Counted from the first letter of the stretch, positions 23,501 through 40,937 are shown. The stretch: 64,000 nt of DNA from an uncultured Verrucomicrobiae bacterium (GCA_963812605.1 CAWEWF010000006.1:1-64000); one strand, 5' to 3'. The notes: a model not told the origin generated them from the letters alone. Numbers and translations: made by a program.

Positions 23501-24772
23501 CATTCGTACACCACCGCGGGAACCTTCTCGGTCAGCCTGACGGTATCGGGCCCGCTCGGCTCGAATACACTTATGCTCGCAAACCTGATCACGGTGACGA
23601 ATGTGTTCGTGCCGCCGCCCGTGGCCGCCTTCACCGCCACCCCGACCAACGGCGGCATACCGCTGCTGGTGAACTTCACCGATGCTTCGACCGGCGCGAT
23701 CACCAACCACTCCTGGACCTTTGGTGACGGAGGCGCGAGCGCGGCCGCCAGCCCGAGCCACACGTACTCCATCGCCGGCATCTATTCGGTCGGGCTGACA
23801 GTTTCGGGCCCCGGCGGCTCGAGTGCGACCAACCTCGCGAACCTGATCACGGTGACCAATGTTGTGGGCGTGCCGCCGACGGTGAACATTCTTCGGCCGG
23901 CCAATGGCATGTTGTATCCGCCGGCCACCAACCTGACGATCACCATTGTCGCCAACGCCACCGCCAACGACGGCACCGCGATCACCAAGATCGAATTCTT
24001 TGCCGACGGCAACAAGTTTGCGGAGACCACCTCCAATCCGGGAACCAACTTCCTGCTCAATCCCACGCTCGGCACCCACGTCCTCATGGCGCGCGCCACC
24101 GACGCGGTCGGCGCGACCAATACCGCCACCGCCACGATCACCGTCGGCGCCAAAAACTCGCCCGTGGGCGATTGGGAAGTCACAATCAGTAGCGCTGATA
24201 AGGGAGCCCAGTTCCTGACATTCGAGGATGACTTCACCGCCAGCGGCTATGCGATTCGCTTCAAGACGTTTGGATTGGACCAGGTCTCGGGTCAATGGGG
24301 CTTCGACGCGAAGGGACAGGTGACGGGACCGTTTGTCGAGCAAACCGATGGTGTGACCAACTGGACCGGCACGCTGTCCAGCAAAGTAAAGAGCTTCAAG
24401 AGCGTCATCGGGACCGTGCCGACCTCTGTCGGCACTTTCCACTGGAAGGGCATCCCGGCGACGACGTTCCGGGATCTCAGCGGCACATGGACCGGACTGG
24501 TGACCGTGGCCAAAGTGTCGACGGCGGTGAGCTACGCCATCACCAACAACGCCAGCAATTCGGCTGTTTTCGATATCGCCGCGACCAACGCTCCAGCCAC
24601 GGTGGTGGGACAGTTGCTGGTGACATCACGCAACCAAATTTACGGCTACATCACGTTCGCCAGTAAGCCAATCAACTTCTCGGGCAGCTTCAACGTCCCT
24701 CGCGGTGCGCTGCTATTGAAGGGTACGGACGCAACCGCGGAGAAGGTCACCATCAACCTGTTCCAACAGTAG
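20590..24772 (+). CDS. large secreted protein: beta-solenoid repeats + 3 PKD + ASH/Ig + Big-like domains (frameshift near 21740)
   Basis: Signal peptide; ~50-aa repeats (GQMTVSNGTV...GTxTxAGGT...GAVWxTGG); PKD motifs (PLxVxFxDxSxG..WxFGDG..SHxY); PPTVNILRPANG..KIEFFADG. Confidence 0.85.
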
Positions 24773-24903
24773 ATCCCGGCACCAGTAATGTGCCGGAATA
24801 ACGCCAAACAGAATCAACTGAAAGAGGTTCTGCTCTCTGCCGTATCCACGCTTTTTGCCGCTGCGCCGGTAAAAACTAGTGCTGCGACACAGTTCATTCG
24901 ATG

Positions 24904-24973
24904 GGTAGAGCGCGGTGGCCCACCGCGCCGCGCCAGCGCGGAATCGCGGACGGCTCGGCGAGCCGTCCCTACC
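24904..24973. repeat. GTAG-type REP doublet
   Basis: GGTAGAGCGCGGTGGCCCACCGCGC...GGACGGCTCGGCGAGCCGTCCCTACC. Confidence 0.75.
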
Positions 24974-25004
24974 AACGACCCTGCAAATGAAGCGTGTCGC
25001 ACCA

Positions 25005-25691
25005 CTAGCCGATTGATTTCCGCCGCAACAAGCCCGCTAATCCCAAGACACCAAAACCAACCAGCGCCAGGGTGCCGGGCTCCGGAACGACCGTGTCAGT
25101 AGGCGTGTCAAATCCGAAAAACTCCTGCGGACCACTCGCGCTCATGTCGGTCGGCGTATAAATAACCACGTCGCTGAATTGCGCCGGGGTCAACCCGGGG
25201 CCTGCGGCTACAGCCGCCGCCAGGTAGGTCTGTACCTGCGCTTCGTCGCCGGCGCTCAGGACCGCCCCCGAAACATCCTGCCCCGTCAACAAATCCCACA
25301 CCGCCCAGTTGTAAAGACCTTGGGGATCGGAGTTGCTCGCATTGAACGCGCTGACTCCTTCCAGGAATAAATAGGACCCCTCCAGATAGCCCGCCACGCC
25401 CGCGGCAGGAGATTCCAGGGTTAGCACCGTGTTGGTATCCAGGTTCGCCACGTTAAGCGTAGTGGCAGTCCACTGGTCCCCGGCCACGATGTGTTGGTTG
25501 AAGCTGCTGCACATCAGTTGGTAGGGCCCCCCGCCGTTAATGGTGAAATCGTAGGGAAACGTATACACGCCCCCGGATTGATTGCCCTCCGCCCCGATGA
25601 AACCCATCGCAACGGTACCGGCGCTAGCGATCACCGCCGTGAACGACGTACTGAACAGCAACAAGGAACCAACCAGAAGAGTTTTTTTCAT
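25005..25691 (-). CDS. PEP-CTERM surface protein
   Basis: Signal peptide; VPEPGTLALVGFGVLGLAGLLRRK. Confidence 0.92.
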   Translation of the reverse strand: MKKTLLVGSLLLFSTSFTAVIASAGTVAMGFIGAEGNQSGGVYTFPYDFTINGGGPYQLMCSSFNQHIVAGDQWTATTLNVANLDTNTVLTLESPAAGVAGYLEGSYLFLEGVSAFNASNSDPQGLYNWAVWDLLTGQDVSGAVLSAGDEAQVQTYLAAAVAAGPGLTPAQFSDVVIYTPTDMSASGPQEFFGFDTPTDTVVPEPGTLALVGFGVLGLAGLLRRKSIG

Positions 25692-26103
25692 GGATAGCCT
25701 GTGAATAGGAGTTTGAGTTTAACGTCGTTTTGCTGCTTGGCCTCATGGTTTCCACTTCCGACGAAGCGATCGCGACCAAACAACAAAAACCTCCAGCTTG
25801 GTCGCGCCACCACGCCAGTAAACACAGCGCGGCATTATCGCCAAACGGGGGCGGTGAAGAGACCCAACGAAGAGGCGAAAGCACTCGCAACGCTCTTAAT
25901 CTCTCTCCCCTGGCCGACTCTCGCAAATCCTGCCAGTGCGCCCATAATGCATCTCCGTGTTTGTAATTCAAGGAAAAAGACGGCTAAGGCAGATAAAGTA
26001 AGGGTTCAGCGCCTGACTCTCGACCGCTCACAGAGGTGGGGAAGCGCAAAAAAAGGAATTTGCACCGGCCATCGCACACCGAGGCGTCCAAAAACGTCCG
26101 CCG

Positions 26104-26358
26104 TTAGTGACGAAAATAGCCGGCGGCGCTCAAACGCGCGAGATTCCGCGGGGTGATCGGCTGTTCCGCCCGGGCGAAGAGCGCCTCGATGGCTTCATGC
26201 GCCACGAGATCGATCTGCTCATCGGTAGCTCCGGCTTTCACGGCCATGGCCACCAATTGCTCATACCGCCACGTCGCGCCCTCGAGGATCGCGCCCTTGA
26301 GCGCGAGTAGCGCCAAGCTAAGGGGCGTAAGGGGTCGGTTGGCTCGTGCGGTCTTCAT
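26104..26358 (-). CDS. small hypothetical protein, weakly CMD/AhpD-like
   Basis: AMAVKAGATDEQIDLV motif; 84 aa from the internal ATG. Confidence 0.5.
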   Translation of the reverse strand: MKTARANRPLTPLSLALLALKGAILEGATWRYEQLVAMAVKAGATDEQIDLVAHEAIEALFARAEQPITPRNLARLSAAGYFRH

Positions 26359-26432
26359 CTCGCCGGGCAAAATAGCAATACCCGCGCCAAGTTCTTCCGC
26401 CAGAGAGAAAAAAGAACGCCGCCACCCCGCAA

Positions 26433-29400
26433 TTAGTGCGTGATTATCACGCCGCCAGGCAGTGTGACCGAAGACGGCGGCTGGTTGGATTGCTGACCGA
26501 TTATTTGCTGGAACCGCGCCTGCTGCCGGCAATTATCCAAACGCGGGTCGCGACGAATCGTCTCGAGAACATGCCGGCTCGCGTCGTCCAGCGCAACCGC
26601 GCGCTCCAGCGCCGCCACCGCCGCGTCGCAATTCTTTCGCGCGCATTGCACGACGCCCAGATTGTACCAGGCCACCTGGTTTTGCGGATAACGCTGCGTC
26701 ATGACCGCCAGCAGGTCGGTCGCCCGATCCAATCGTCCCAGCCCCAGGTAGCGCTGCGCAATTTGCAGGAACGTTTCGGGAGGCAAATTCGGGCCGCCGA
26801 GCAGCGCGGTGACGACTCCATCGATGGCCTCCGTTCGCTGATGCCGGGCGTAGGAATCGATCAACAGCAGCGCCAGCGACAGGTCGCCGGGCTGCGCCGC
26901 ATACTCCTGTTCCAACCCGTGTTCCTCGGCCGTCTGGCGCTTCAATTCCTGGACGACCCGGATCGCTTCGCGAATCCGCAGGTTGTACCGGTCACGCCTT
27001 TGGTACTCTTCGAGGACCGCGTCGGCATCATCAAACCGGCCGGCGCCCACATAGAGTTGCGCGAGCCGAAAGTTTCCATCGGGACCGTCGGGACAGAGGG
27101 CAATCGCCTGCTTGTAGGCATACTCCGCTTCCGCGGCCATCTGACGGAACGCGTAAAGGCCGCCGATGGCCGAGCGCAGCTTGGCAAATGTCTCTTCCGC
27201 CGCGTTGTCGCGGTTGAAGCGCGGATCGTGGTGCAGGTCCTCGAACAGCGCGTCCCAATATTCGCGATCGCGCGCGACCGTCTCGGGCGTAATTTCCGGC
27301 AGCGGATCGCGGTTGATCTTCAAAATAATCCCATACGGCTCCAGGTAAGGATACAACCAGGGAATGGGGTAGCTCTCCTCGATGTAAAGCGCATGCTGCT
27401 CCTTGTTATGGTCGAACACCTCCCGGATAACATAGCCGTTGACAGCCATGACACTCGCCAGCCCCTGCACATTGACGCGACCGTCTTTGACTGTCACGTC
27501 TTCGCCCGGCTGGCGCGGGCGCGTGCGCAGTTCATTCAGATACCCTTGAAAAGCCATCTGGAGATCATTCTCTTCTGGCACCCAGATCGGTTCCTGCGGG
27601 TACGCTTCCCTGCGCCCCAGGTGTTGCCATGCAAAATCAAACAATGCGCCCTGCCAACCGGTGCGGTCCTTCACTGTCCCTGGATTTCTCGGGTCAGGCC
27701 GGCCCATGCCGTAATGGTCACGGACGGAATGCATGTAGGTTCGGTCCGCAAGCGCGTTCTGCGTGAGGATGTAAACATCGCGGCGATCGAACGTGCCGCT
27801 CTCGGGGAATTGGGCCAGTTGGGTCCTGGCGCGCGGCGACACCTGGCTCTCGACGTAAATCATGTACGTCGGCACGAAGCGGCCCGGGTCCGTGCCGCCA
27901 AACAGAATCGCCCCCTTCTCCATCTCGGGATAGCCGCTGCCGGGTTTGAACATCCGATAGCCAAATTGATAGCCGAAATCATGGTCGCGTTGCTCGTTGT
28001 CCGCCCAGTTGAGCGCGACGGACACGAGCGGGAGGGCCGACACGAGCAGGGCCAGCGGCAGCGCGGCTCCCTGAAGTTGCGGGTTCTCGGTGAAGAGATA
28101 ACCCGATCCGAGAATCAAGCCATACCCGATCCACAGGGCGTAGATGCAATGACAGGGCATAAAGAAAACGCGGTCGGTGAACAGCTTCTGCTTCCCAACA
28201 CTTGGGTTGGAAAAAAAGATATAGTCCAACCCCAGGAAAAGGAATGCGACCAACAGGAAGACCAGCCAGTCCCGATCCTCACGCGCCAAATCCCGGAAAA
28301 AGAACAGCGCCAGCCAGGGCAACCAGGGCGTACACGATATTGAACTGCGCCTTGAGGTCGTCGAAGAACATGTTGACCTGGCCCCAGAACTGCAACGCAG
28401 TGCGCTCCGGGCGGACTTTCTCGTATTGACCGCGCAGAAAGTGGTGAAAGAACTCGGTTGGTATGCGGGTGTAGCCCCAATTCATTGGCGGATTCGTCGC
28501 GGACGACAACGGCAGGTAACCATACGCCGCCAACCCGAGAAGTACCGCGCCATACGTCGCGATTGCCGGCCGCCACATCTGCATCAATCCCGGCCCCTCC
28601 CTCCACAGCAGGTACAACCATATCCCCGCGCCAACCCCGTGCGCCAGGGTCCATGCCGCTGAGAATGCTCCCTGGTGGATCAGGCTGCCCGACGTCACGA
28701 TCATTTTTATGACACCGAGTATGATCACCAACAAAATCGGCGCGAGCATGCTCCGTCCCAGCTTCCGGTCCGCAAACCAGACGAACGTTGGGAAAGCTAC
28801 CGTCAACAACACCAGCGTCTGGTGGTTCGTCAGGCCCACTCCCCACAAAAATGCCGCCAGGTAAAGCTGCCCGCGCCGTTCCGTCTCGAAACTCCAGCGA
28901 TACAACAGCGTCAGCGTTGCCATCAGGAAAAACGCGTTCAAGCTGTGCACCTCGGTGATCACTGACTGTGACCACATCATGGGGGAAAACGCCAATAGCA
29001 GCGACGCGGCCACCGAACTGGCGAGGATGATCGGTGGCAGGACATTTTCGTTCTCGATCCGCTGCAGGAACCCGCACCGGGACGCCATCACGCGCCCGCT
29101 TTTCGAGATCAGCAGAGCCGCGAAGCCGACGGCCAGTGCGCCAAGGAATGCGGACAGCAAATTTACGCGCCAGGCGACGCTGCCAAAGGGAATAATCCAT
29201 TGCCAAGCCCACGCGAGCATCGCCCAAACCGGATAACCCGGCGGATGCGGCACGCCCAGATTGTGCGCTGCGGTCAGAAAACCGCCCGAATCCTCCAGCG
29301 TCACGCTCGGCGCCAATGTGTACCAGTAGACCGCAAAAGTCAGGACAGTCGCGATTCCGAACGCCAGCTTGTCGCGGACGCCAAAGAATGCCGCTGATTC

Positions 29401-29433
29401 TGTCGTCCCGGTTGGCTCTGGGAAATCACTCAT
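26433..29433 (-). CDS. DUF2723/TMEM260-like GT-C protein glycosyltransferase with C-terminal TPRs (frameshift near 28320)
   Basis: TLAPSVTLEDSGGF..LGVPHPPGYP, WSQSVITEVHSLN, GLTNHQ, NPPMNWG; GGTDPGRFVPTYM; TPRs. Confidence 0.88.
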
Positions 29434-29476
29434 GGTGTTAAGGCCTGGCGCGTGCGCTTAAGGGCCGCGGCCGTCC

Positions 29477-30229
29477 TCACTTCTTGGTCTTCGGTTTGGC
29501 GTGCGGCTTGCGTCGAAATCCGTGCATCAATGCCAGTGACCACACCATCCAGAGCGCCTCGCGAACGATGTGGCCGGACATTTTGGATTGGCCCGCGTAG
29601 CGGTCAGTGAACGTAATGGGAATCTCACGGACCCGAAACCCCTTCATCCATACTTTATGTGTCATCTCAATCTGGAAGGCGTAGCCGTTGCTCCGCACCT
29701 CATCGAGGCCGATCGTTTCCAGGACAACCCGGCGGAAGCATTTGAAACCTCCCGTCGGGTCATGCACCGGCAACCCGGTAAGGATTCTGACATAGTACGA
29801 AGCCCCTTTGCTCAAAATCAGGCGCGAGAGCGGCCAGTTCACGACGCGGATGCCGTCGATGTAACGCGAGCCCAGCACGAGGTCGGCTTCCTGTATCGCT
29901 TTCAACATATTCGGGATCTCGCGGGGGTCGTGGGAAAAATCCGCGTCCATCTCGATGAGGTAGGCGTAATCACGCGCCAGGCCCCATTTGAACCCGGCAA
30001 TGTACGCCGTGCCCAGGCCCAGCTTCCCCGCCCGGCTCAACAAATGCGCGCGCGGATTGGCCTGCGTCATCTCGGTCACGATGGCCGCGGTGCCGTCGGG
30101 CGAGTTATCATCCACCACCAGTACGTCGAGATTCGGGGACTGGGACAACACCAGCTCGACGATCGAGCGGATGTTCTCCTTCTCATTGTACGTCGGAATA
30201 ATGACCAGGGCCCGTTCGTCTTGCGCCAC
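29477..30229 (-). CDS. polyprenol-monophosphomannose synthase-like GT2 (Dpm1/Ppm1)
   Basis: IIPTYNEKENI, VDDNSPDGT, GLGTAYIAGF, EMDADFSH, GYAFQIE. Confidence 0.92.
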   Translation of the reverse strand: MAQDERALVIIPTYNEKENIRSIVELVLSQSPNLDVLVVDDNSPDGTAAIVTEMTQANPRAHLLSRAGKLGLGTAYIAGFKWGLARDYAYLIEMDADFSHDPREIPNMLKAIQEADLVLGSRYIDGIRVVNWPLSRLILSKGASYYVRILTGLPVHDPTGGFKCFRRVVLETIGLDEVRSNGYAFQIEMTHKVWMKGFRVREIPITFTDRYAGQSKMSGHIVREALWMVWSLALMHGFRRKPHAKPKTKK

Positions 30230-30230
30230 G

Positions 30231-31925
30231 CTATTTCGTCTCCTTCACAAACCGCGGATTGGCCAGCACCAGGTAGATGCCCTGGTGAAATACCACCGGC
30301 CATTTCTCTTGTTGTGTTTGCTGGATCACTTCCCGTACGCCCCGCAGGCCCATGGTATACACCGCATCGATGCCCACAGGCAACTGCGCGGTTCGCCCGT
30401 CGGGAAGCAGCCGCTGCTCGACTCCGTACTCCAACACGAGGAACTTCGCCTCCGGTAGCCGGCAGTCGAACCAATAAAGCTCCTCCGGAATGTGCGCGGG
30501 CACCGGCATGTCATTGTCCACGCCTTCGTAACGCGCGCAAAACGTCAGCATGCTCCGCCGGTCGCAGCGCGCCAGCCAGTAAATCTGCTTCGGGACAATC
30601 ACGAAATCATCTTTCGCCGTGTGCGCGTTCACGTACGCCATGGCCGCCTCGGCGTCCGTCACCGACTGCTGGGCCCACATGTCGATGCGGGTATGAAAAT
30701 GGTCCCACGCGCCGGAAGCCGACTGCAGGCCGAAGCCGGCAAGCACGATAATGGCGACCGTCGTCGCCATCGCCTCCTTTGATTTTCCCGCAAGTTTTTT
30801 TGCCAACTCCCCAGCCCACGTCAGCGCGCCGGCAAAACCCACCGCCATCAGCGGCAGGAAGATCGTCGCGGGATAGAAGAACAACGGAACGTTATTGAGC
30901 TTCTTGAACACGCCGTACATCAGCACCAGCAGCCAAAACGGCACCCACAGTCGCAGTCGCCAATCACGCGTCGGCAAAAACACAAACCCGACCGTCGCCA
31001 CGGTCAGCCACCAATCCTGTCCCTGCGGCAAATTCATCGGAACAAGCTGTCCGGCTGGACCTGCCGGGACGAGCTGCAGCACAATCTTCGTCGGCGTCTT
31101 GAAACCAAGCGTCCACACGTTCTCAATGAATCGCTCCACCTCGCCGCCAAAAGTCGGGCGCGCCTCGTTGTTCGCGATGCTCGTCAATCGCCCCACCTGC
31201 GTCATCAATTGTCCCCAGCCGTGCGCCGCGCTGTACCACAGCACAAACAAACCCGCGTACGCGCACGCCAGCGCACCGGCGACGATCACATCCCGCCACG
31301 CGCGCGGCGATTTCCATTCGCGCCAATTCACCACCGCCACCGTCGCGACCACCGCCCCAACCAATGGATACGTGAAATAATTCGTCGCCGTCGCCAGCGA
31401 GCAGAATATTCCCGCCCACGCCGCGTCCCGCAGCCGCTTTTCCTGGACGTAACGAACCAGAAATCCGACGGATGCCAGCGCCCAGGTTCCTGCCATCGGG
31501 TGGGAACGCACCCAGCGGAAATTGATGTTCGCTTCGGAGTAAACCAGGAACGCCGCCGCGCAAAGAAAACCGAAGTTCTTGTCGCGAAGACGCGTCCCAA
31601 TCCAAAATAGCAGCGCCGCGGCAGCCAGCGCGGTCACTGCGCCCAGCGCGCGCGCCACGACAATGTCGTTGCCGAACACGCGCAGCAACGCGCCGTTCAC
31701 CGCCATGTAGAGCGGCGGGTACGGGTACGGGAAAATGTAGTCAATAGTGATCGGCCCGGCCCGCGGCGTCCCGTGGATGAACGTCCAGCACTTCTCCATC
31801 CACTCCCCCTCGTCGCCGTACCAGTTCGGGTTCGTCCGCAGGTTCGGGAGAAACAGCAGCGCCCACAATACCACCAGCCCGACGGCGATGTTACGCTCCC
31901 ATTTTGTCTGGAAAGGCAGTTTCAT
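30231..31925 (-). CDS. GT-C (ArnT/PMT_2-like) membrane glycosyltransferase
   Basis: WYGDEG in first loop, YPPLY, multiple TMs, periplasmic C-terminal domain. Confidence 0.8.
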   Translation of the reverse strand: MKLPFQTKWERNIAVGLVVLWALLFLPNLRTNPNWYGDEGEWMEKCWTFIHGTPRAGPITIDYIFPYPYPPLYMAVNGALLRVFGNDIVVARALGAVTALAAAALLFWIGTRLRDKNFGFLCAAAFLVYSEANINFRWVRSHPMAGTWALASVGFLVRYVQEKRLRDAAWAGIFCSLATATNYFTYPLVGAVVATVAVVNWREWKSPRAWRDVIVAGALACAYAGLFVLWYSAAHGWGQLMTQVGRLTSIANNEARPTFGGEVERFIENVWTLGFKTPTKIVLQLVPAGPAGQLVPMNLPQGQDWWLTVATVGFVFLPTRDWRLRLWVPFWLLVLMYGVFKKLNNVPLFFYPATIFLPLMAVGFAGALTWAGELAKKLAGKSKEAMATTVAIIVLAGFGLQSASGAWDHFHTRIDMWAQQSVTDAEAAMAYVNAHTAKDDFVIVPKQIYWLARCDRRSMLTFCARYEGVDNDMPVPAHIPEELYWFDCRLPEAKFLVLEYGVEQRLLPDGRTAQLPVGIDAVYTMGLRGVREVIQQTQQEKWPVVFHQGIYLVLANPRFVKETK

Positions 31926-33565
31926 GGCCGGTTAATGAAATAAATGCGCATCGGGCCAAAGTTGGTGCTGGTACCGCCAAAGTTTATCCGGGCGGCGTCG
32001 AAGCTCGTTCGATTGTCATCCACGACCAGCACGAGTGAATTGGTGGGCAACACGTCTCCGTGACCATACAACATCGCCAGGAAGGGTAAATCCAACTGTG
32101 CCGGTTCCGCGCGCTGCCAATGATCCATCTGCAACAGCCGGTTCTCCTGGACCAGCTTCCCGGTGTCCGCTTGCGCCGCCACAAATTTCGCCGCCACCTG
32201 TTTGAATCCAAGCCCGGATCCATACGTGCCCTGCGCCCCGCCATAACGGCTGAGGTACGAATTCACATCCAACAAAAAGATGACGTTGCCGACGAGGAAC
32301 ACCGCGATAACGGCCATCAGGATTTTTACTGGTACAGCCCGTTGGGCCAGCGCCCCAAAAATCAGGAAGAACACGGGATACATGATCACATAGTACGACA
32401 AATACGTCCACAACCCGGCGACAAGATACACGCCCAGCGGCACGATAAACCACAGCACCAGAATCCAGGCCCGCTTCGATTCTTCATCCGCCGTCACTTC
32501 CCGCCGGAAAACGGTTTTCTGGGACTTCGCGGCCACCACGCCGAACCACGCCAGGGCTGCGAGAACCGCCAGCCGTTGCAGTGCCGGCAGCCAATCCCCC
32601 AGCGTCAGCGTCGAATCGAAATACCGATTCTGTCCCGCGCCCTTGCTGATCCAAATCCGGTTCGGATCGAATCTCTCGCTGGTGCTCAATCCCAGCACGT
32701 CCTCGATCTCGCCGCCATTCATGATCGACAGCGCATGTTGCCACGCCTCCGTCGGTCGTCGCGGAAATGGATAGCCGCTCTGCGGATTGATCGTCACGCC
32801 GAGCGGAAGTTGCTCCCAGCGGCTGCTGCTGCGCTCTTCCGACATCCGCTTCCATTCCGCCCAGCCATTCCTCTGTTGCGCCATCACGTACGGCACTGCC
32901 AGGGCCATCGCCAGCAGGACGCCGGCAATCGCCAGCCGCCAATCGATCTTCGGTCGCAGGAGAAGCAGGATCGCCACCACCGTCGCGGTCAGCGCGAACC
33001 CACTGTAGTGAATCTGGATCACGCAGAGCGGCAGGCACAATGCCCAAAACACCGCTTTCGGTTTCTTTCCGAGGACCAGCGCGTGCACCGCCCACATCGT
33101 CGCGGTGGCGAACACCGGCACAAAATCCTGCGCCCAGATTTTCCGGGAATAAATCACCGCCCACGGCGCGGTGGCAAACAAGGCCGCCGCCAACAGGCCG
33201 GTCAGCGGACCATAATACTTCCGCCCGATCCACCACGTCGCGACCACCGCTGCCAGTCCGAGACTGGCGATCAGGCAGCATACCCCCGTGATGCTCGACG
33301 TGACGAAGAACATCGGGATCAGCAACCAGATGAACAGCGGCGGGTTCGACACGCCTACGCTCGACATCAAACCCGACGTCGGCAGCTTGCCGCCCCGCAC
33401 AAACTCCAGCGCCCGGTTCGCCGCAAACGCCTCGTCGCCCTTGAATTCCAGCAATTCCAAGTGCTGAAATCGCAACCAGGCACCGACCGCGACAATTACC
33501 GCCAGAATGAGCCACTCCGCCTTGATCGAGAGTGGCAAGCCGGGCGTTGACTGCGGTTTTTTCAA
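31922..33565 (-). CDS. GT-C (ArnT/PMT_2-like) membrane glycosyltransferase
   Basis: GAWLRF..FKGDEA, NPPLF, APWAVIYSRKIW. Confidence 0.85.
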   Translation of the reverse strand: MKKPQSTPGLPLSIKAEWLILAVIVAVGAWLRFQHLELLEFKGDEAFAANRALEFVRGGKLPTSGLMSSVGVSNPPLFIWLLIPMFFVTSSITGVCCLIASLGLAAVVATWWIGRKYYGPLTGLLAAALFATAPWAVIYSRKIWAQDFVPVFATATMWAVHALVLGKKPKAVFWALCLPLCVIQIHYSGFALTATVVAILLLLRPKIDWRLAIAGVLLAMALAVPYVMAQQRNGWAEWKRMSEERSSSRWEQLPLGVTINPQSGYPFPRRPTEAWQHALSIMNGGEIEDVLGLSTSERFDPNRIWISKGAGQNRYFDSTLTLGDWLPALQRLAVLAALAWFGVVAAKSQKTVFRREVTADEESKRAWILVLWFIVPLGVYLVAGLWTYLSYYVIMYPVFFLIFGALAQRAVPVKILMAVIAVFLVGNVIFLLDVNSYLSRYGGAQGTYGSGLGFKQVAAKFVAAQADTGKLVQENRLLQMDHWQRAEPAQLDLPFLAMLYGHGDVLPTNSLVLVVDDNRTSFDAARINFGGTSTNFGPMRIYFINRP

Positions 33566-34314
33566 CGCGTTCTCGCTTTCAATGCCCGAACGACTTTTTG
33601 GACCCGGTTGATGCGAAACAGTTCAAGCCAAATACTCACCGCACGGCGCAAGTTATAGGGAATGCGCGTGTCGGGATCGTGGACCCACGGCACCGCGACT
33701 TCCGCGATCCGATACCCTTCCCGCGTGGCCACCACCAGCATCTCAATGTCGAAGATCGCCGAGTTTGACGTGACCTGCGGAAATACTTTCCGGGCCACCT
33801 CGCCCTTCATCGCCTTGAAACCGCATTGCGTGTCGTAAAAGCCGCGGATGCAGAAGAGTTTCGTCCCGACCCCGAAAAGTTTTCCCGCCAACGCGCGATA
33901 CCAGGCCTGTGGTTGTTCCACGCGGGCGCCCGGCACCGCCCGCGAGCCGATCGCCATATCGTATCCTTCGCGTTCCAATTTCGGGAGCAACTTCTCCACG
34001 GCCGTGATCGGCGTGCTCTGGTCCGCATCGGTGAAAAGCGCGAACTGACCGCGCGCGTCGAGCATGCCCGCCTTCACCGCGCCGCCTTTGCCTCGATTGG
34101 GATTGAGGTCGATCAGTCGCAACATGGGAAACTCATTTGACAATTCGCGCGTCACTTTCGCCGTGTCGTCCCGGCTGCCGTCGTTGACCACGATAATCTC
34201 AAAGGATTGCCCCTTCGATTGCAGAAACTTGACGATCCCGGGTACGAAACGCTTGAGTCGTTCCTGCTCGTTGTACGCGGGAATAACGACCGACAGGTAC
34301 GGGCGCTCTTCCAT
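33562..34314 (-). CDS. dolichyl-phosphate beta-glucosyltransferase-like GT2 (Alg5-like)
   Basis: LSVVIPAYNEQERL, VNDGSRD, NRGKGGAV, FTDADQS, DTQCGFK. Confidence 0.9.
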   Translation of the reverse strand: MEERPYLSVVIPAYNEQERLKRFVPGIVKFLQSKGQSFEIIVVNDGSRDDTAKVTRELSNEFPMLRLIDLNPNRGKGGAVKAGMLDARGQFALFTDADQSTPITAVEKLLPKLEREGYDMAIGSRAVPGARVEQPQAWYRALAGKLFGVGTKLFCIRGFYDTQCGFKAMKGEVARKVFPQVTSNSAIFDIEMLVVATREGYRIAEVAVPWVHDPDTRIPYNLRRAVSIWLELFRINRVQKVVRALKARTR

Positions 34315-34321
34315 CGCTGGT

Positions 34322-35446
34322 TCAGGTTGCTTTCCGCAACGCGCCCATTTCGCGCAGCTTCGTTAGCGCTTCCGCGGCGTAATCCCTGTCCAGCTTTTGC
34401 CCGCGGATCCACTCAACATAATCGCGCACGCTGTCGCGCGGGGTTTTGGTCGGTTGCCAGCCGAGACGCTGGAGTTTGGAAATATCCGAGACGCTGTGGC
34501 GCGTATCGCCAACCCGGTACTCGCCGCTGATATTCGGCTCGAGGTTCACCCCGAGGGTTTCCCCGACGATCCCGGCAAATTCGACGACGGTGTAGCCGCG
34601 GCCACCGCCCACGTTGAACACCTCATAGTTCGCCGCATCGCTCTCCAGTGCCAACCGGTTGGCGCGAGCGACATCGCCGACGTTCACGTAATCCCGCAAC
34701 TGCCTGCCGTCCTCAAACACCGACGGGCGTTGTCCCTTCATCATCTGCAAGGTGAAAATGCGCAGCACGCCGGAATAAGCGTTGCGAAACGATTGGTGCG
34801 GCCCTTGCACGATCGAGTAGCGCAACGCCACGCTGGGGATGCCGTAGTTGCGCCCCAACGCGACCGCCATCAATTCCTGCGAGTACTTCGCGATTGAATA
34901 CTGGTTCTTCGGTCCCGCATGCGTCTCCAGTAACGTCAAGGATTGGATCGGCCCGCCGCACTTCGGGCAAAGCGGTTCCCATAAGCCCTTTGCCAGCCGT
35001 TGCGGATCGCGTCCGTCGGGGAAAACTTCGCCATCTTTCGCGCATTGATAGCGCCCCTCGCCATACACGAACTGGCTGCTGGCAACGACCACTTTCCGCA
35101 CCGGTAATTTTTCCGCAACAATCAATTCGTACAACAACGCCGTGCCGACCGAGTTCACGTGGAAAAATTGCGAAAAGTTCGGGAGCAAATCCTGGTAGGC
35201 GGCAAGATGGATGACGACATCGACTCCCCGCAGCGCCTTCGCCCAGTCTTCGCGATTGCGCACATCGCCCGACACGCGCTCAACGTCGCCGGACAACCAA
35301 TCGGGCCACGCGCCGTCGCCGGTATGCACCGGCGGCGTGAGATTATCGAGTACGCGAACTTCGTAGCCGGCGCGCAGGAGTTCGATCGCCGTGTGCGATC
35401 CGATGAAACCCGCCCCGCCTGTAATCAGCGCCAGACCTTTACCCAT
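34322..35446 (-). CDS. NAD-dependent nucleotide-sugar epimerase/dehydratase
   Basis: LITGGAGFIGSH, YSIAK, RDYVNVGDVA. Confidence 0.9.
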   Translation of the reverse strand: MGKGLALITGGAGFIGSHTAIELLRAGYEVRVLDNLTPPVHTGDGAWPDWLSGDVERVSGDVRNREDWAKALRGVDVVIHLAAYQDLLPNFSQFFHVNSVGTALLYELIVAEKLPVRKVVVASSQFVYGEGRYQCAKDGEVFPDGRDPQRLAKGLWEPLCPKCGGPIQSLTLLETHAGPKNQYSIAKYSQELMAVALGRNYGIPSVALRYSIVQGPHQSFRNAYSGVLRIFTLQMMKGQRPSVFEDGRQLRDYVNVGDVARANRLALESDAANYEVFNVGGGRGYTVVEFAGIVGETLGVNLEPNISGEYRVGDTRHSVSDISKLQRLGWQPTKTPRDSVRDYVEWIRGQKLDRDYAAEALTKLREMGALRKAT

Positions 35447-35450
35447 GCGC

Positions 35451-36050
35451 TTACCGGGAATGTGTTTCCTTCAATTTCTCGTACAAGTAGCCCGTGATGA
35501 TGTGGTCGAGAATCATGTGAACGTCTTCCACGGGACCGTATCCATCCGAGGGAACGACGAAACATATCTCCGCCAGCTTCGCCAGCTTGCCGCCGCCAAA
35601 TCCCGCCAGGCCGATTACTTTCACGCCGATCTGTTTCGCCGCCTCGACGGCGGCGACAATATTGGGCGAGTTGCCCGAGGCGGAGATCGCGATCAGCAGG
35701 TCGCCGCGCTGCGCCAGGTTCTTCAGCGGTTCGCTGAAGATGCGGTTGTAGTCCGTGTCGTTCGCCCACGCGGTCATCAGGGAAACGTTATCGGTCAGGG
35801 CGATGACGCGCAATCGCGGCCATGGCGCATCCCCTTTGTGGCCCAGCGTGCCTTTGCAGAGGTCGTTCATCATGTGCGACGCGGTCGCCGCGCTGCCGCC
35901 GTTCCCAATCACAAAGATTTGTCGTCGCTCCTTCTGCGCCAGTTCGATGGCCTGGATGATTTCGTCAACCGGCCCGAGCGGGATGCGATCCAGCACGTCT
36001 TTCAGCCCCCGAATATAATCCTTCGCGAAATCGCCTGCCTTTTTCATCAT
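35451..36050 (-). CDS. gmhA: phosphoheptose isomerase (SIS domain)
   Basis: IGNGGSAATASH, TAWAND, ISASGNSPN, GFGGG, EDVH. Confidence 0.82.
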   Translation of the reverse strand: MMKKAGDFAKDYIRGLKDVLDRIPLGPVDEIIQAIELAQKERRQIFVIGNGGSAATASHMMNDLCKGTLGHKGDAPWPRLRVIALTDNVSLMTAWANDTDYNRIFSEPLKNLAQRGDLLIAISASGNSPNIVAAVEAAKQIGVKVIGLAGFGGGKLAKLAEICFVVPSDGYGPVEDVHMILDHIITGYLYEKLKETHSR

Positions 36051-37031
36051 TCAATACCTTTGCATGTTCACGACAATGCGGCTGCCGCCGCGCTCCAGCC
36101 GAAAGGGCATTTCGCGCAGGTTGGCCAGCGCCTGGCGCACCGCCTGTCGTTTGTTGCTCGGCACGCACAACAGGAAAAATCCGCCGCCACCGGCGCCGGA
36201 AATCTTGCCGCCCAGCGCCCCGGCTTTCACCGCGCGCTCGTAAATCTCGTCCAGCTCCGTGCTGCTGACGCCTTGCGCAAGTTTTCGCTTGGCCTCCCAG
36301 CCCTGATGCAGGATCGCGCCCAACCCGTCGATGTCCGACGCCTCGATCAACTGCCGCACCTGCGCCGCCTGTTCCGTCATTTGTTGCAGCACTTCGACCT
36401 TGCCACCGATGTTGGATTTCTGTTGCGAGAGAATGCTCGACGCCTGCCGCGTCTTGCCCGTGTAGAACAGCATCAGCATGTTATCGAGGTCTTCGAGCAC
36501 CGTGCGCGTTGTCTTTACCGAGGTGATCTTCACCGCGCGGCCCGGGCCGAACTCGAAACAGCGCAAACCGCCGTACGCCGCGATGTATTGGTCCTGCACG
36601 CCAATCGGTTTGCCGAGAATGCCGATCTCGATTTCGCAGGCCTCGCTCGCCAGTTGCTCGACCGTGGGTGTCGCGCCCACGTGATGGTACAACGCGTTCA
36701 GCACCCCCACGGTGACGCTGCTCGACGACCCGAGCCCCGAACCTTCCGCGGGAATGTCCGAGAGAAAAGAAATCTCAATCCCCCTCTGCACCCCGACCTT
36801 GCGCATCGCCTCGCGCACCAGTTCGTGCTCGATCTGGTCAACGGACTCCACGATCTCCTTCTTCGTCCAGTTGACATAGATCTTGTCGTCGAATCGTTCC
36901 TTGGCGATACAGTACACATATTTGTCGATGGCCGTGCTGACCACGCGTCCGCCGTGTTTTTCAAAAAAGTCGGGGAAATCCGTCCCGCCGCCTGCGAGCG
37001 AAATCCGCAATGGTGTCTGCGTGATGATCAA
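36051..37031 (-). CDS. hddA: GHMP sugar kinase, HddA (heptose-7-phosphate kinase)-like
   Basis: TPLRISLAGGGTD, GSGLGSSS, GVQDQY, GGKISGAGGGGF. Confidence 0.8.
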   Translation of the reverse strand: MIITQTPLRISLAGGGTDFPDFFEKHGGRVVSTAIDKYVYCIAKERFDDKIYVNWTKKEIVESVDQIEHELVREAMRKVGVQRGIEISFLSDIPAEGSGLGSSSSVTVGVLNALYHHVGATPTVEQLASEACEIEIGILGKPIGVQDQYIAAYGGLRCFEFGPGRAVKITSVKTTRTVLEDLDNMLMLFYTGKTRQASSILSQQKSNIGGKVEVLQQMTEQAAQVRQLIEASDIDGLGAILHQGWEAKRKLAQGVSSTELDEIYERAVKAGALGGKISGAGGGGFFLLCVPSNKRQAVRQALANLREMPFRLERGGSRIVVNMQRY

Positions 37032-37745
37032 TTCAACACTCCCTGTTCAAAATCGTGCTGGGCTTTCGCCAACCGCTCGGGCGTGCCCACGTCCTGGATA
37101 TACGCCTCCGGCTTCATCGCGTACACCGGTCGGTCTTCGGCCAGCAACTTCGGAAACACGTCCTTTCCGAAATCGTAAAACTGTCCCGCCGGAATCGTTT
37201 CCAGCACGGTCGGTTCGATGACGAAAATACCAGCGCTGATGAGATTTGTCGAAACCTGTTTCGGGTCCGGCTTTTCGACAAAACGCAGCACCCGACCGTT
37301 CGAATCCGTCTCCACCACCCCGCCCGTCCACGGCTCGGGCGACGCAAATAGCGCCACCGTCACCTCGGCCTTGTGGGCCCGATGAAACTCGATCAGCGGA
37401 GCAAACTCAACCCGGACCAGGTTATCTCCGTAGAACACGAGGAATGTCCCATCGAGCAGTTCAGGTTCCATTTTCTTTACCGCCCCGGCAGTGCCCAGCA
37501 ATTCCGGCTCGCGCGAATAGGTGATCTTCACGCCGTACCGGCTTCCATCGCCAAAGTAGTTGGTGATCTTTTCGGGAAGATAGTGGAGGTTCACGATCGA
37601 GCTCGCGGATGCCCTGCCGCTTGAAAAGTTCCAGGTGATGTTCGAGCAGGGGCTTGCCGCCCACCGGTACCATCACCTTCGGAAGGTCCAACCCAAGCGA
37701 ACGCAAGCGTGTGCCCAGTCCCGCGGCCAGGATGAAGGCCTTCAT
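37028..37745 (-). CDS. sugar-1-phosphate nucleotidyltransferase, HddC/GMPP-like (frameshift near 37600)
   Basis: MKAFILAAGLGTRLR..LPKVMVPVGGKPLL joins NLHYLPE..LGTAGA..YGDN..FVEKP..DVGTPE. Confidence 0.85.
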
Positions 37746-37772
37746 CGCTTGCCCGTGTCGCCATTCATTTCT

Positions 37773-37807
37773 CCTCTCCCCTTGGGGGAGAGGATTAAGA
37801 TGAGGGG
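37773..37807. repeat. CCTCTCCC..GGGAGAGG palindromic repeat
   Basis: CCTCTCCCCTTGGGGGAGAGG..TGAGGGG; related copy at 49553. Confidence 0.7.
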
Positions 37808-37841
37808 AAAGGAAACCGTTAGGCGTAGGAAGATCATTGGG

Positions 37842-38492
37842 TCATACCCGCTCGCGCTGCGGCGGCGGAGGCGGCGAATCATCGGCGCCCGTGCTGCGCT
37901 CGCGCAGATAGCGGGACAACACGGCCCACGCCTTCTGCATCGCTTTCGCGCGATGACTGATGCGGTTCTTCACTTCCGGCGAAAGCTCCGCGAAAGTCTT
38001 TGTCTGGCCGTCGGCGATGAAAAGCGGATCGTACCCGAACCCGCCGCCACCGCGCTCGGCCTCGAGGATCGTCCCGTTGCAGATGCCTTCCACGCAGTCG
38101 CACAGGCCGTTCTCGTCGGCAATCGCCACCACGCATCGAAATCGCGCCGTGCGCTTATCATACGCCACGCCTTCGAGCCGCTGGAGCAGTTTCTTGTTGT
38201 TCTCGTGATACGTCGCGTCCTCGCCGGCAAATCGCGCCGATCTCACGCCCGGCTCGCCCTTCAAGGCATCTACCTCCAGCCCCGTATCGTCGGCCAGCGT
38301 CAACTTCTTCGCCGCCCGCGCCGTCTCCACCGCTTTCTTGATCGCGTTATCGCGGATTGTCGCGCCGTCCTCCACGACTTCCGAAAGCCCGCGAATGTCC
38401 GATGCCTGGACGGCCTCCAACGGCAGGTCCTTCAGCAAGGCAGTGAGTTCTTTCAATTTGTGTTTGTTGCGCGAAGCGACAAGTAATTGCAT
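37842..38492 (-). CDS. rdgB: XTP/dITP diphosphatase (Ham1 family)
   Basis: ASRNKHK, ADDTGLEV, PGVRSARFAG, GFGYDPLF, KNRISHR. Confidence 0.95.
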   Translation of the reverse strand: MQLLVASRNKHKLKELTALLKDLPLEAVQASDIRGLSEVVEDGATIRDNAIKKAVETARAAKKLTLADDTGLEVDALKGEPGVRSARFAGEDATYHENNKKLLQRLEGVAYDKRTARFRCVVAIADENGLCDCVEGICNGTILEAERGGGGFGYDPLFIADGQTKTFAELSPEVKNRISHRAKAMQKAWAVLSRYLRERSTGADDSPPPPPQRERV

Positions 38493-38556
38493 GGCCGCGC
38501 ATTATACCGCCCCGCCGCCAAAAATGAAGGACAGAGTGCGGGTCGTTCCCACCCCT

Positions 38557-38583
38557 TGTCATTCCGAGCTTGTCGAGGAATCT
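38557..38583. repeat. TGTCATT...GAATCT REP-like element
   Basis: TGTCATTCCGAGCTTGTCGAGGAATCT; related copy at 60980. Confidence 0.7.
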
Positions 38584-38624
38584 CCTGCGCCGCTACACTA
38601 CAAGCGAAGTCATGAGGGAAATCG

Positions 38625-39482
38625 ATGGCAAACGCCCAGCCCGATAAACAGAGTATTCTCGAAGCGATCAGACAAACTGCCAAAACGGTTGGTCATCCGC
38701 CCTCACGCACTGAATTCAAGGCGAATACCGGCATGACGGAGTACCGAGTCATGCAGCACTTCCCGAGTTGGCGAGAAGCTGTCCGTGCCGCAGGACTTCA
38801 ACCCGACGTAACACGCATCAAGATCGATGACGATCAACTCTTGAAGGACTGGGGCGAGCTTGTCCGGAAACTCCGCCAGATTCCCACCCGCTATCTCTAT
38901 GGACGAGAAGGCAACTATAGTCCCGGATCATTTGAAAAACATTTCGGTCCTTGGTCGGCAATCCCCGCGAGATTCCGTGAGTTTGCTCATGGCAAATCCC
39001 AATGGGCCGATGTCATTGCTCTACTGCCGCTGGTGACTCCCAAACCCAGCGTGGAGGTAATCACAAGCACAACAAGCTTTCCACCGGAAAGCCCTAGTCA
39101 GATTGTCGCTCGGCCAAGACATACAAAACTGGACGACCGTTCGACGTATGGCAATCCCATCGACTTTCGAGGACTTCGCCACGAGCCGGTGAATGAACAA
39201 GGCGTAGTATTTCTCTTCGGGATGGTGGCGAAGGAACTTGGTTACATGGTCGAAGCTGTTCAAACCGGATATCCAGACTGCGAAGCCAAGCGGCAAGTCG
39301 CAGGAGGCAGATGGCAAAGAGTAAGAATTGAATTCGAGTTCGAGAGCAGAAACTTTGACCATCCCCCTGAAGGCTGCGACGTCATTGTTTGCTGGCGACA
39401 CAACTGGCCTAATTGCCCGGAGAGAATCGAGGTCGTCGAACTTTCATCCGTGATTAAGACACTGGCCAAATCCGAAGATTGA
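38625..39482 (+). CDS. nuclease: 2x homing-endonuclease-associated helical repeats + PD-(D/E)XK-like domain
   Basis: Repeats (LEAIRQ..GHPPS..HFPSWREAVRAAGL; LLKDW..RQIPT..HFGPW); C-terminal NEQGVVFLF..YPDC..RIEFEFESRNF..IVCW. Confidence 0.78.
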   Translation: MANAQPDKQSILEAIRQTAKTVGHPPSRTEFKANTGMTEYRVMQHFPSWREAVRAAGLQPDVTRIKIDDDQLLKDWGELVRKLRQIPTRYLYGREGNYSPGSFEKHFGPWSAIPARFREFAHGKSQWADVIALLPLVTPKPSVEVITSTTSFPPESPSQIVARPRHTKLDDRSTYGNPIDFRGLRHEPVNEQGVVFLFGMVAKELGYMVEAVQTGYPDCEAKRQVAGGRWQRVRIEFEFESRNFDHPPEGCDVIVCWRHNWPNCPERIEVVELSSVIKTLAKSED

Positions 39483-39500
39483 CCGCCCTTTTTATTGCGC

Positions 39501-40937
39501 ATGAAACCGCGAAAGCGTGACGAATGGGAACGGCGGTTTACGGAACTGCAAGCTTTTCGCCGTCGGTTCGGTCATTGTCGCGTACCGGCGAATTGGCCGG
39601 AGAATCGAATGCTCGCCAAATGGGCCGTCGCGCAACGACAGCGATGGGGACATTCATCCATAGCGCAGCTACGGCGTTTGCATAGATTAGGCTTGGACTT
39701 CTGGTGGCGAGATCGGGAGTGGTTGGAAAAATTCTTCGAGCTGGTGGCCTACCAGCGTCGGCATGGTGATTGCCGCGTGCCACAACGGTGGCGCCCAAGT
39801 CCCGCATTGGCGCACTGGGTCGTGGGTCAACGCAGCAATGAGCGTTCTTGGGCACAGCGGCGCCATCTTGACCAGCTTGGCTTTGACTGGGGACCTCGCA
39901 AGACATGTTGGGACCGGTTCTTCGAGGAATTAAGAGCGTTCAAGCAGCGCCACGATCACTGCCGCGTGTTGAAGAAGTATGGGGCCAGCACTTCGTTGCG
40001 TTATTGGGTGGCAAATCAACGAGGCCGCTGGCGGCGCTACCCGCTTTCGGCTGCGCAAAAGGCAAGGCTGGATAGTTTGGGTTTCGAATGGAACCCGGCC
40101 ACTCGTCTACAGGAACCTATTGAAAGACATTTCGGTGAATTGCAACGGTTTAAGGCTCACTTCGGCCATTGCCGCGTGCCGCATGATTGGCCAGAGGATC
40201 CCAGATTGGGACAATGGGTGAAAAATCAGCGTTCCGCCAAACTATCTTCCAAGAGACGGCAACGGCTCCAGCAATTGGGATTCGATTGGAATCCATTCGA
40301 GACGATTTGGGAAACGCGCTTCGGAGAGTTGCTCGCCTTTCAACAGCGCTTCGGCCACTGCCTTGTCCCGCAACGATGGCCGGAGAATCGCGTCTTGGCC
40401 AGTTGGGTTGAAAGCCAACGGCAACTGTATCGACACGGCCAGCTTTCCAAGAAAAAGCAGGCGCGGCTGAACACGCTGGAGTTCGTCTGGGATGTGCCAC
40501 GTTTGTTCTGGGAACAGCAGTTCACCGATTTGAAGCGATTCAAAACACAGCACGGACATTGTTTGGTACCGCAAAAACAGCGAGCAGATCGCGCGTTGGC
40601 AACCTGGGTAGCCAATCAACGAGTTCTGGCGCGCCGGGATCGGCTCTCGTCCGATCAGAAAGCAAAGCTGGACGCACTGGGCTTTGTCTGGAGCGTCCTT
40701 CACCTCCAATGGGAGGAACGGTTTGCCGAGTTGAAACAATTTAAGACGCTTTACGGTCACTGCCGGGTGACGCAGCGCTGGCGCAGCGACAGAAGACTTT
40801 GGAGTTGGGTGTGTCGTCAACGAGAACGAAGACGGAGACGTCACCTGCCTGCCGAGCAGTTAACACGTCTGAATGCACTAGGATTTATTTGGCAACCTGA
40901 ACGAACTGCGCGTGTCGTACTGCGTAGACAATTCTAG
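39501..40937 (+). CDS. stand-alone protein of seven tandem helicase-associated (HA) domains
   Basis: Seven ~65-aa units W..F.EL..F...GHCxVP......L..WV..QR......L..LGF.W; no helicase motifs. Confidence 0.88.
   Translation: MKPRKRDEWERRFTELQAFRRRFGHCRVPANWPENRMLAKWAVAQRQRWGHSSIAQLRRLHRLGLDFWWRDREWLEKFFELVAYQRRHGDCRVPQRWRPSPALAHWVVGQRSNERSWAQRRHLDQLGFDWGPRKTCWDRFFEELRAFKQRHDHCRVLKKYGASTSLRYWVANQRGRWRRYPLSAAQKARLDSLGFEWNPATRLQEPIERHFGELQRFKAHFGHCRVPHDWPEDPRLGQWVKNQRSAKLSSKRRQRLQQLGFDWNPFETIWETRFGELLAFQQRFGHCLVPQRWPENRVLASWVESQRQLYRHGQLSKKKQARLNTLEFVWDVPRLFWEQQFTDLKRFKTQHGHCLVPQKQRADRALATWVANQRVLARRDRLSSDQKAKLDALGFVWSVLHLQWEERFAELKQFKTLYGHCRVTQRWRSDRRLWSWVCRQRERRRRRHLPAEQLTRLNALGFIWQPERTARVVLRRQF

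Follow-up and report, generated by a model that had tools for sequence, protein, structure and literature searches.

The 64,000-nucleotide stretch analysed here (the window; positions 1-64000 of contig C6 in the 4.17-Mb, 15-contig genome G000, completeness estimate 89.96%) comes from an uncultured soil Verrucomicrobium and carries, at 26433-37745 on the minus strand, a nine-gene operon of the lipid-carrier periplasmic glycosylation type. This operon type is well supported. The fuller reading favoured here, with a probability of about 0.5, is that the operon contains two polyprenyl-phosphate-dependent modules: module A, of heptose type, in which a sugar cassette is joined to a polyprenyl-phosphate sugar synthase of the GT2 family (GT2a) and a membrane glycosyltransferase of the GT-C fold (GTCa); and module B, a mannose module, in which a Dpm1-like synthase (GT2b) is joined to a second GT-C enzyme (GTCb) and/or a TPR-bearing GT-C enzyme. 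Homologues close to the operon proteins are labelled as Verrucomicrobiae or Verrucomicrobiia metagenome-assembled genomes (MAGs).

Families were called by Pfam, NCBIfam and PDB sequence searches, and folds by AlphaFold2 (AF2) models compared with the PDB in Foldseek. The nine genes run in one direction, and their junctions vary between an overlap of 4 nt and a gap of 43 nt. A preliminary description of this DNA had reported nine co-directional, mostly abutting or overlapping genes, among them two GT2 enzymes of the lipid-carrier type and three GT-C enzymes. All nine are present on the minus strand, the count of transferases is right (two GT-C enzymes by fold and one TMEM260-like), and the family given for each gene is upheld by the Pfam, NCBIfam, PDB and fold matches. 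The same description listed no Wzx, Wzy, ABC exporter, GT4 or GT9 gene in the block; Pfam agrees, and these domains are equally absent from the flanks at 15-26 kb and 38-51 kb.

The first four genes form the sugar cassette. A sugar-1-phosphate nucleotidyltransferase (NT; 37028..37745, ~238 aa, PF00483) spans two reading frames, 37461-37745 and 37028-37594, with profile positions 1-48 and 56-244 on separate frames. It is followed by an HddA-like GHMP sugar kinase (36051..37031, 326 aa), for which HddA is the top NCBIfam model (174.5 bits, cut-off 600; runner-up fucokinase at 104 bits) and the PDB matches are headed by three heptose kinases, 3k85, 4usk and 4n3o (E 2e-46 to 2e-41). The third product is a divergent GmhA-like isomerase of the SIS family (35451..36050, 199 aa). 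Its 13 best PDB matches are all phosphoheptose isomerases (E 5e-26), and NCBIfam GmhA models score 110-112 bits, below cut-offs of 209-276. In the PDB alignment, H59, D63, E175 and H183 fall on GmhA positions that we take to be metal-binding or catalytic.

The fourth enzyme is an extended short-chain dehydrogenase/reductase (SDR) of the epimerase type (34322..35446, 374 aa; PF01370 in two stretches) with UDP-hexose 4-epimerases as its best PDB matches. Residues S123, Y183 and K187 are invariant in nine of nine aligned sequences. Beyond S123 the sequence follows the epimerase pattern and does not have the Asp-Glu pair that marks 4,6-dehydratases at this point. An insertion of ~40 residues (residues ~133-177) carries C134, C160 and C163 in a C...CPKC pattern; the three cysteines are kept in six aligned family members, and a homologue with 52% identity in G271, a genome of another class, has the insertion without them. 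The Cys-bearing insertion may form a metal site. As judged from sequence, the cassette enzymes resemble those of the GDP-heptose pathway more than any other known family, and the lead of HddA and GmhA over other models is wide.

Two synthases could load sugars onto a lipid carrier. GT2a (33562..34314, 250 aa, PF00535) is of the polyprenyl-phosphate glycosyltransferase type, and its best PDB matches are the P. furiosus dolichyl-phosphate-mannose (Dol-P-Man) synthase (DPMS) 5mlz (74.9 bits), then ArnC and GtrB. GT2b (29477..30229, 250 aa) is a candidate Dpm1/Ppm1-like polyprenyl-phosphate mannose synthase: residues 4-234 align to DPMS 5mlz with 122.4 bits (E 2e-34), and ArnC and GtrB follow. A simple 19-residue scan finds no hydrophobic segment in either protein. 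The structure matches suggest that the synthase component of a three-component system, a GT2 of the DPM1/GtrB/ArnC type, is present twice. An orthologue of GT2b with 63% identity stands in another family with neither cassette nor GT-C gene nearby, which fits a general polyprenyl-phosphate-mannose synthase.

GTCa (31922..33565, 547 aa) always adjoins GT2a. It has no Pfam match by itself; 18 of 30 homologues reach PMT_2 (E<=0.1), and some are labelled ArnT-like at source. An AF2 model built from 30 sequences (pLDDT 81.6) matches ArnT 5ezm in Foldseek (E 2e-7), and of its 23 PDB matches at E<=1e-3, those listed are GT-C enzymes only (OST/AglB/PglB, Pmt4, AftB and ALG12). GTCb (30231..31925, 564 aa) passes the PMT_2 cut-off narrowly (27.1 against 26.1 bits). 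Its model (10 sequences, pLDDT 72.9) has 35 PDB matches at E<=1e-3, with AglB at 6e-8 and ArnT at 3e-7 in a range of 6e-8 to 4e-7. Just past the first helix, both carry an invariant Asp-Glu pair: D44 and E45 in 30 homologues of GTCa, and D38 and E39 in 10 sequences of GTCb. The available part of the 2023 TMEM260 paper (PMC10214176) describes an acidic residue at that place as facing the donor in PMT1 and TMEM260. PDB searches by sequence alone gave nothing meaningful (best E 0.46 for GTCa and 1.3 for GTCb), and a profile comparison of the GTCa alignment gave a probability of 6% against GTCb and of 2.6% against a 689-aa protein of G271 described below.

The last gene (26433..29433) encodes a single product of ~1000 aa in which a TMEM260-like GT-C domain (DUF2723, PF11028, 118.5 bits; 28279-29433) precedes a C-terminal domain matching TPR families (26433-28322); the two parts lie in different frames. 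This is the layout of TMEM260 itself, a GT-C domain and then a TPR domain. In the portion of the 2023 paper that was available, human TMEM260 is reported to bind Dol-P-Man and its TPR domain to grip an extended peptide, and bacteria are said only to have distant homologues (PMC10214176). The literature searched yielded no characterised bacterial DUF2723 protein and named DUF2723 only in connection with the human enzyme. On models and family matches, then, all three membrane proteins are GT-C enzymes: GTCa by predicted fold, GTCb by Pfam and predicted fold, and the DUF2723 protein by Pfam.

Conservation of gene order ties the cassette to GT2a and GTCa. Searched with GTCb, 23 of the family's 24 other genomes give a match, as against none of 16 genomes that belong to other families in the order or class. 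Around these matches 14 loci were fetched, and 12 have the full order NT-kinase-SIS-SDR-GT2a-GTCa-GTCb-GT2b; one more stops early at a contig end and is otherwise the same. The last, on contig 29 of G019, holds only a GTCb relative of 44% identity, and a second contig of this genome carries NT-kinase-SIS-SDR-GT2a-GTCa-GT2b-DUF2723-TPR without GTCb. In each of the 14 loci of relatives in which the cassette, GT2a and GTCa occur, they form one unbroken stretch, so that module A always travels together. The order in G019, with GTCb elsewhere, indicates that the two modules are separable. One genome of 75% completeness (G018) has no match to the kinase, GT2a, GT2b or GTCb.

The DUF2723-TPR gene is adjacent in seven of 15 relatives' loci and stands outside the conserved core. 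In G007, GT2b is followed by a small MOSC gene and then by a gene for a protein with PMT_2 and TPR domains, and in several other loci a SurA-like gene takes the downstream place. The preliminary description had treated the nine genes as one operon; conservation extends to the core of cassette, GT2a and GTCa, and the DUF2723-TPR gene is a variable neighbour. The synteny survey it proposed finds the heptose-type genes adjoining GT-C genes in relatives.

An HddA-like match (E<=1e-30) occurs in 50 of 251 genomes sampled from the phylum. Outside the family, the nearest kinases are in G271 (54% identity), G282 (49%) and G211 (48%), all others being at or below 43%. In G271 the genes run SDR (52%)-NT-kinase (54%)-SIS-GT2 (44% to GT2a), an order unlike that of the window. 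A convergent gene beside this cassette encodes the 689-aa protein mentioned above, whose hydrophobic segments number at least nine, the first of them followed by a W-Q-D-E motif. The Atlas groups it with PMT_2 clusters (feature score 0.98, TM 0.60-0.64), and phmmer finds no match between it and the operon proteins; this is a lead, not proof, that the protein is GT-C-like.

Relatives of the kinase, SIS and SDR also lie beside a transaldolase and/or HAD phosphatase gene in G211, G282, a Saccharibacteria MAG and an Acidiferrales MAG (loci L067, L068, L082 and L086), which points to sedoheptulose-7-phosphate chemistry. The Saccharibacteria locus encodes, in one direction, a GHMP kinase, SIS, HAD, transaldolase, small EamA protein, SDR (49%), NT, 243-aa GT2 and YfhO-type GT-C enzyme; genes for rhamnose and for UDP-sugar dehydrogenase are present as well, which leaves the lipid-linked sugar there ambiguous. 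Separately, a nucleotidyltransferase-HAD phosphatase fusion is encoded at 6901-8244 of L067 (G211), in a second heptose-type cassette with its own transaldolase.

The remaining heptose-related genes of the genome lie outside the window. The preliminary description noted that the window lacks GmhB, and the sole match in the genome is indeed on another contig (G000:C4:315775-316212; 144.3 bits against a cut-off of 149.6). With a GmhB-like gene available there, its absence from the operon and the window is no obstacle to the proposed pathway. In 15 of 15 same-genus relatives, the SIS of the operon (~107-118 bits) is accompanied by a canonical GmhA elsewhere, which scores 191-201 bits in 14 of them; that of G001 is split and scores 133 bits. 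The canonical form (191 aa, ~200 bits) was not found in this 90%-complete assembly, in which the operon copy is the only strong GmhA-like gene. By these scores, the operon SIS is a dedicated, divergent second copy beside the canonical GmhA of relatives. Together with an RfaE-type kinase and 4-5 GT9 genes elsewhere in the genome, the canonical GmhA and the GmhB-like gene suggest that the lipopolysaccharide (LPS) heptose route is separate and that a phosphatase is available in trans.

The family and fold assignments, gene order, conservation and genome context described so far were established by computation, and from them the chemical steps, the identity of the sugars, the pairing of each GT2 with a GT-C enzyme and the acceptors are all inferred. 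If the operon works as proposed, module A would act in five steps: the GmhA-like isomerase, the HddA-like kinase, the GmhB-like phosphatase (in trans) and the NT would produce a nucleoside diphosphate (NDP)-heptose, probably GDP-heptose; the epimerase-type SDR would modify it; GT2a would move the sugar to polyprenyl phosphate at the cytoplasmic face; a putative flippase would carry the lipid-linked sugar across the membrane; and GTCa would pass it to an envelope acceptor. In module B, GT2b would supply both GTCb and the TMEM260-like TPR enzyme with polyprenyl-phosphate-mannose, and the TPR enzyme would most likely O-glycosylate secreted or membrane proteins.

The central step of module A is the more tentative part. 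That GT2a makes polyprenyl-phosphate-heptose and that GTCa heptosylates a periplasmic or surface acceptor, possibly protein, is put at somewhat less than even odds; heptose loading is proposed because the adjacency is invariable and the operon holds no other transferase, rather than from the sequence of the GT2 itself. The preliminary description had spoken of lipid-carrier protein glycosylation. The operon type stands; protein as the acceptor is suggested, by analogy, for the TMEM260-like enzyme alone, which lies outside the conserved core.

Systems in which a polyprenyl-phosphate-sugar synthase serves a GT-C enzyme are well described: the Gtr, Arn, teichoic acid and mycobacterial systems. 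The lipid-linked donors known for GT-C enzymes are those of Man, Glc, Gal, GlcNAc, GalN, Ara4N, arabinose and ribose. A further example of a synthase with a GT-C enzyme is provided by the pentofuranose systems, and their description does not mention heptose (Kelly et al. 2024, PMC11127046). As far as these sources go, the operon resembles three-component systems (GtrA/GtrB/Gtr, ArnC/ArnE-F/ArnT and the pentofuranose systems of PMC11127046) in that a GT2 synthase and an extracytoplasmic GT-C enzyme are encoded with genes for a special sugar. The GT-C component with acidic residues in its first external loop is likewise matched by the predicted folds of GTCa and GTCb and their Asp-Glu pair. In contrast to three-component systems, the operon has two synthases and three GT-C enzymes, its GT2s lack C-terminal membrane helices, no flippase gene was found in the block or scanned flanks, and its sugar pathway is heptose-like.

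Module B invites comparison with protein O-mannosylation from Dol-P-Man or polyprenyl-phosphate-mannose (DPM1 with TMEM260, PMT or TMTC enzymes; actinobacterial Ppm1 with PMT). GT2b aligns over the whole catalytic domain, and the downstream gene encodes a TMEM260-like domain followed by TPRs, the layout that, from what was available on the human enzyme, binds Dol-P-Man and grips peptides. Unlike the eukaryotic and actinobacterial systems, this operon belongs to a diderm host, and its TMEM260-like gene varies among loci, a PMT_2-TPR protein standing in its place in G007. Streptococcal systems, in which GtrB/PgfS-type synthases and GT-C enzymes glycosylate Ser/Thr-rich regions of membrane proteins (bioRxiv 10.1101/2024.05.05.592596, seen in part), offer a bacterial precedent for protein O-glycosylation from undecaprenyl-phosphate sugars, and GT2a weakly matches the PgfS model (60.5 bits). 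As described in that part, they differ from the operon in phylum and envelope, in using hexose or HexNAc donors and in having no sugar-synthesis cassette.

Module A recalls the GDP-D-glycero-alpha-D-manno-heptose pathway, with isomerase, GHMP kinase and nucleotidyltransferase of the same families in one operon. That pathway (GmhA/HddA/GmhB/HddC) serves the Aneurinibacillus S-layer glycan and the Campylobacter and Burkholderia capsules; for the Campylobacter capsule, the phosphatase gene lies outside the capsule locus. The operon departs from it in that its members fall below equivalog cut-offs, its NT is closer to ManC than to HddC, and the partner enzymes are lipid-carrier GT2 and GT-C enzymes, not soluble GT4 or GT2 enzymes. 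To our knowledge, all heptose incorporation so far described proceeds from ADP- or GDP-heptose by soluble cytoplasmic glycosyltransferases. No report of polyprenyl-, undecaprenyl-, dolichyl- or decaprenyl-phosphate heptose was found in the literature searched, which lay mostly outside subscription journals.

Several findings, given here and with the alternatives that follow, weigh against the two-module reading. The NT looks more like a ManC-type mannose-1-phosphate guanylyltransferase (top NCBIfam model, 137.7 bits) than HddC, whose model reaches 45.6 bits on one piece and 43.4 bits on the other (cut-off 300). The matches of GTCa and GTCb to ArnT, which acts on lipid A, are as good as those to protein transferases. 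An ArnT-like target in LPS or lipid A was considered for both, and the evidence neither supports nor rejects it. Finally, no flippase (GtrA, SMR, MATE or EamA) was detected in the nine genes or the flanks at 15-26 and 38-51 kb, the rest of the genome not having been searched.

An alternative, which we regard as unlikely but which fares best, is that cassette and synthase are co-transcribed without being linked: GT2a would load a common sugar (Glc, Man, GlcNAc or similar), and the NDP-heptose would go to soluble glycosyltransferases for LPS core, exopolysaccharide or capsule. Consistent with this, synthases related to GT2a do occur without the cassette. A tree of 20 hand-chosen GT2s, which is not exhaustive, contains a GT2a-type clade (support 96/99) of seven family members, G271, an enzyme of G025 and one of a Candidatus Gottesmanbacteria MAG; the order of these four lineages is not resolved. 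The G025 and Gottesmanbacteria enzymes adjoin PMT_2 GT-C enzymes and have no cassette, which suggests that the constant partner of the clade is a GT-C enzyme and that the source of the sugar varies. Moreover, related cassettes in G282, G211 and the Acidiferrales MAG (L068, L067 and L086) sit in polysaccharide clusters with GT4, GT2, WecG, Wzx and PGT genes, and it is these classical clusters that the closest kinase and SDR relatives outside the family serve. The RfaE-type kinase and GT9 genes mentioned above leave other uses of heptose possible in this genome. Against a lack of linkage stand the contiguity of cassette, GT2a and GTCa in all 14 loci holding them; the recurrence of the association, in another order, in G271; the overlapping or abutting operon genes; the absence of a soluble glycosyltransferase from the block and nearby flanks; and the separate canonical GmhA that would serve the LPS route in all 15 genus relatives.

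The Gottesmanbacteria locus (L099, 714-13337) is itself a dense lipid-carrier glycosylation locus in a bacterium of the candidate phyla radiation. In one direction it encodes the GT2a-type GT2, two PMT_2 proteins, two PTPS_related membrane proteins, two SDRs and a second small GT2. One SDR is 40% identical to that of the operon, and kinase, SIS and NT are absent.

It is also conceivable, although improbable, that the sugar of the cassette is not D-glycero-D-manno-heptose, either because another ketose phosphate is the source or because the phosphate is retained, and that this other sugar is then loaded onto the lipid. All four cassette enzymes stay well short of their NCBIfam equivalog cut-offs; among them the SIS, with ~110 bits where the canonical copy has ~200 bits, is a divergent paralogue. 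No phosphatase gene lies in the three closest versions of the operon, those of its own family, G271 and L081. The SDR family, at ~40% identity, occurs without the cassette too. A scan of genome contigs with the SDR alignment gave 79 loci, and an HddA-like kinase is near in only three (L081, L082 and L086). Heptose is nevertheless favoured by the best matches of kinase and SIS, which are heptose enzymes by a wide margin; by the alignment of the four SIS residues with the presumed GmhA metal and catalytic positions; by distant cassette relatives with transaldolase and HAD phosphatase; and by the GmhB-like gene, whose score lies close below its cut-off.

The same scan revealed a recurrent gene pair. 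Most SDR relatives with at least 40% identity adjoin a second SDR instead, and in many phyla homologues with 39-45% identity lie directly upstream of this second SDR, which is 27-31% identical to the query (L083-L085, L089, L096, L098, L100, L104, L105, L107, L109, L111, L114, L115, L118 and L124).

Two operon genes are interrupted in this assembly. DNA alignment of each gene with three relatives, which read through, shows one extra base (C) near 37599 in the NT gene and one extra base near 28313 in the DUF2723-TPR gene; neither insertion lies inside a homopolymer run. Both genes are continuous in relatives, the DUF2723-TPR orthologue in G019 (L160), for example, being a single 985-aa open reading frame (ORF), and the broken genes retain 76-96% identity to orthologues on either side of the break. 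A survey of 156 ORFs of at least 250 aa, drawn from 20 contig starts of the congener G006 and compared with this genome, matched 96 at >=65% identity. Coverage reached >=90% for 87; nine of these are split over frames and 78 are intact. Frameshifts also occur at other sites of the operon in other MAGs (SDR and GT2a in L024; NT in L035). Elsewhere in this genome, a GT9 gene (G000:C5:405922-406714) and the gene for RfaE domain I (G000:C4:74942-75899; one TGA, and two frames scoring 171 and 176 bits) are likewise split.

A read search turned up six soil-metagenome runs, the best of which contained 0.33 of the sampled words, and no RNA run. Logan contigs from four soil runs are short and of low depth and have no indel among the pieces listed, none of which bridges 28313 or 37599. 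Because relatives are intact and nine of 87 comparable genes are split genome-wide, the two breaks are read as assembly indels, very probably correctly. That the operon is instead decaying here, with real frameshifts inactivating the NT and the TMEM260-like enzyme, is very improbable: the position of the insertions outside homopolymer runs and the soil-run contigs, which show no indel difference although bridging of the sites is not demonstrated, speak for it, and the continuous orthologues, the genome-wide rate of splitting, the split RfaE domain I and GT9 genes, the frameshifts at other sites in L024 and L035, and the identity kept on both sides of the breaks speak against it.

Immediately upstream of the operon lies a gene for a Ham1/RdgB-type NTP pyrophosphatase (37842..38492, minus strand; PF01725, 215.8 bits). 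It adjoins the operon in 11 of 14 relatives' loci and is probably co-transcribed with it; a role in the pathway is not evident. Pattern scans of 24800-38800 stayed at chance level, with 3 promoter-like sites (4.1 expected) and 19 terminator-like sites (16 expected). Beyond the pyrophosphatase gene and divergent from the operon, 38625-40937 (plus strand) encodes an HNH_repeat protein and then a protein with seven Helicase-associated (HA) domains. At the other end, a protein with a PEP-CTERM sorting signal is encoded just downstream of the TMEM260-like gene (25005-25691, minus strand), and beside it a large PKD/Ig-domain surface protein (20590-24772, plus strand), seemingly in two frames (20590-21888 and 21725-24772). 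Neither was found beside the operon in relatives.

If GT2a does load heptose, the product would be a new lipid-linked donor for GT-C enzymes, made by a lipid-linked heptose route not described before. Besides the soluble nucleotide-sugar routes, heptose would then have a lipid-carrier/GT-C route into the envelope, and the enzyme pair would be open to direct assay. In module B, a bacterial relative of TMEM260, an enzyme linked to human disease, stands beside a Dpm1-like synthase. This arrangement may offer a simple model for the TMEM260 family and provides a lead to protein O-glycosylation in Verrucomicrobiota.

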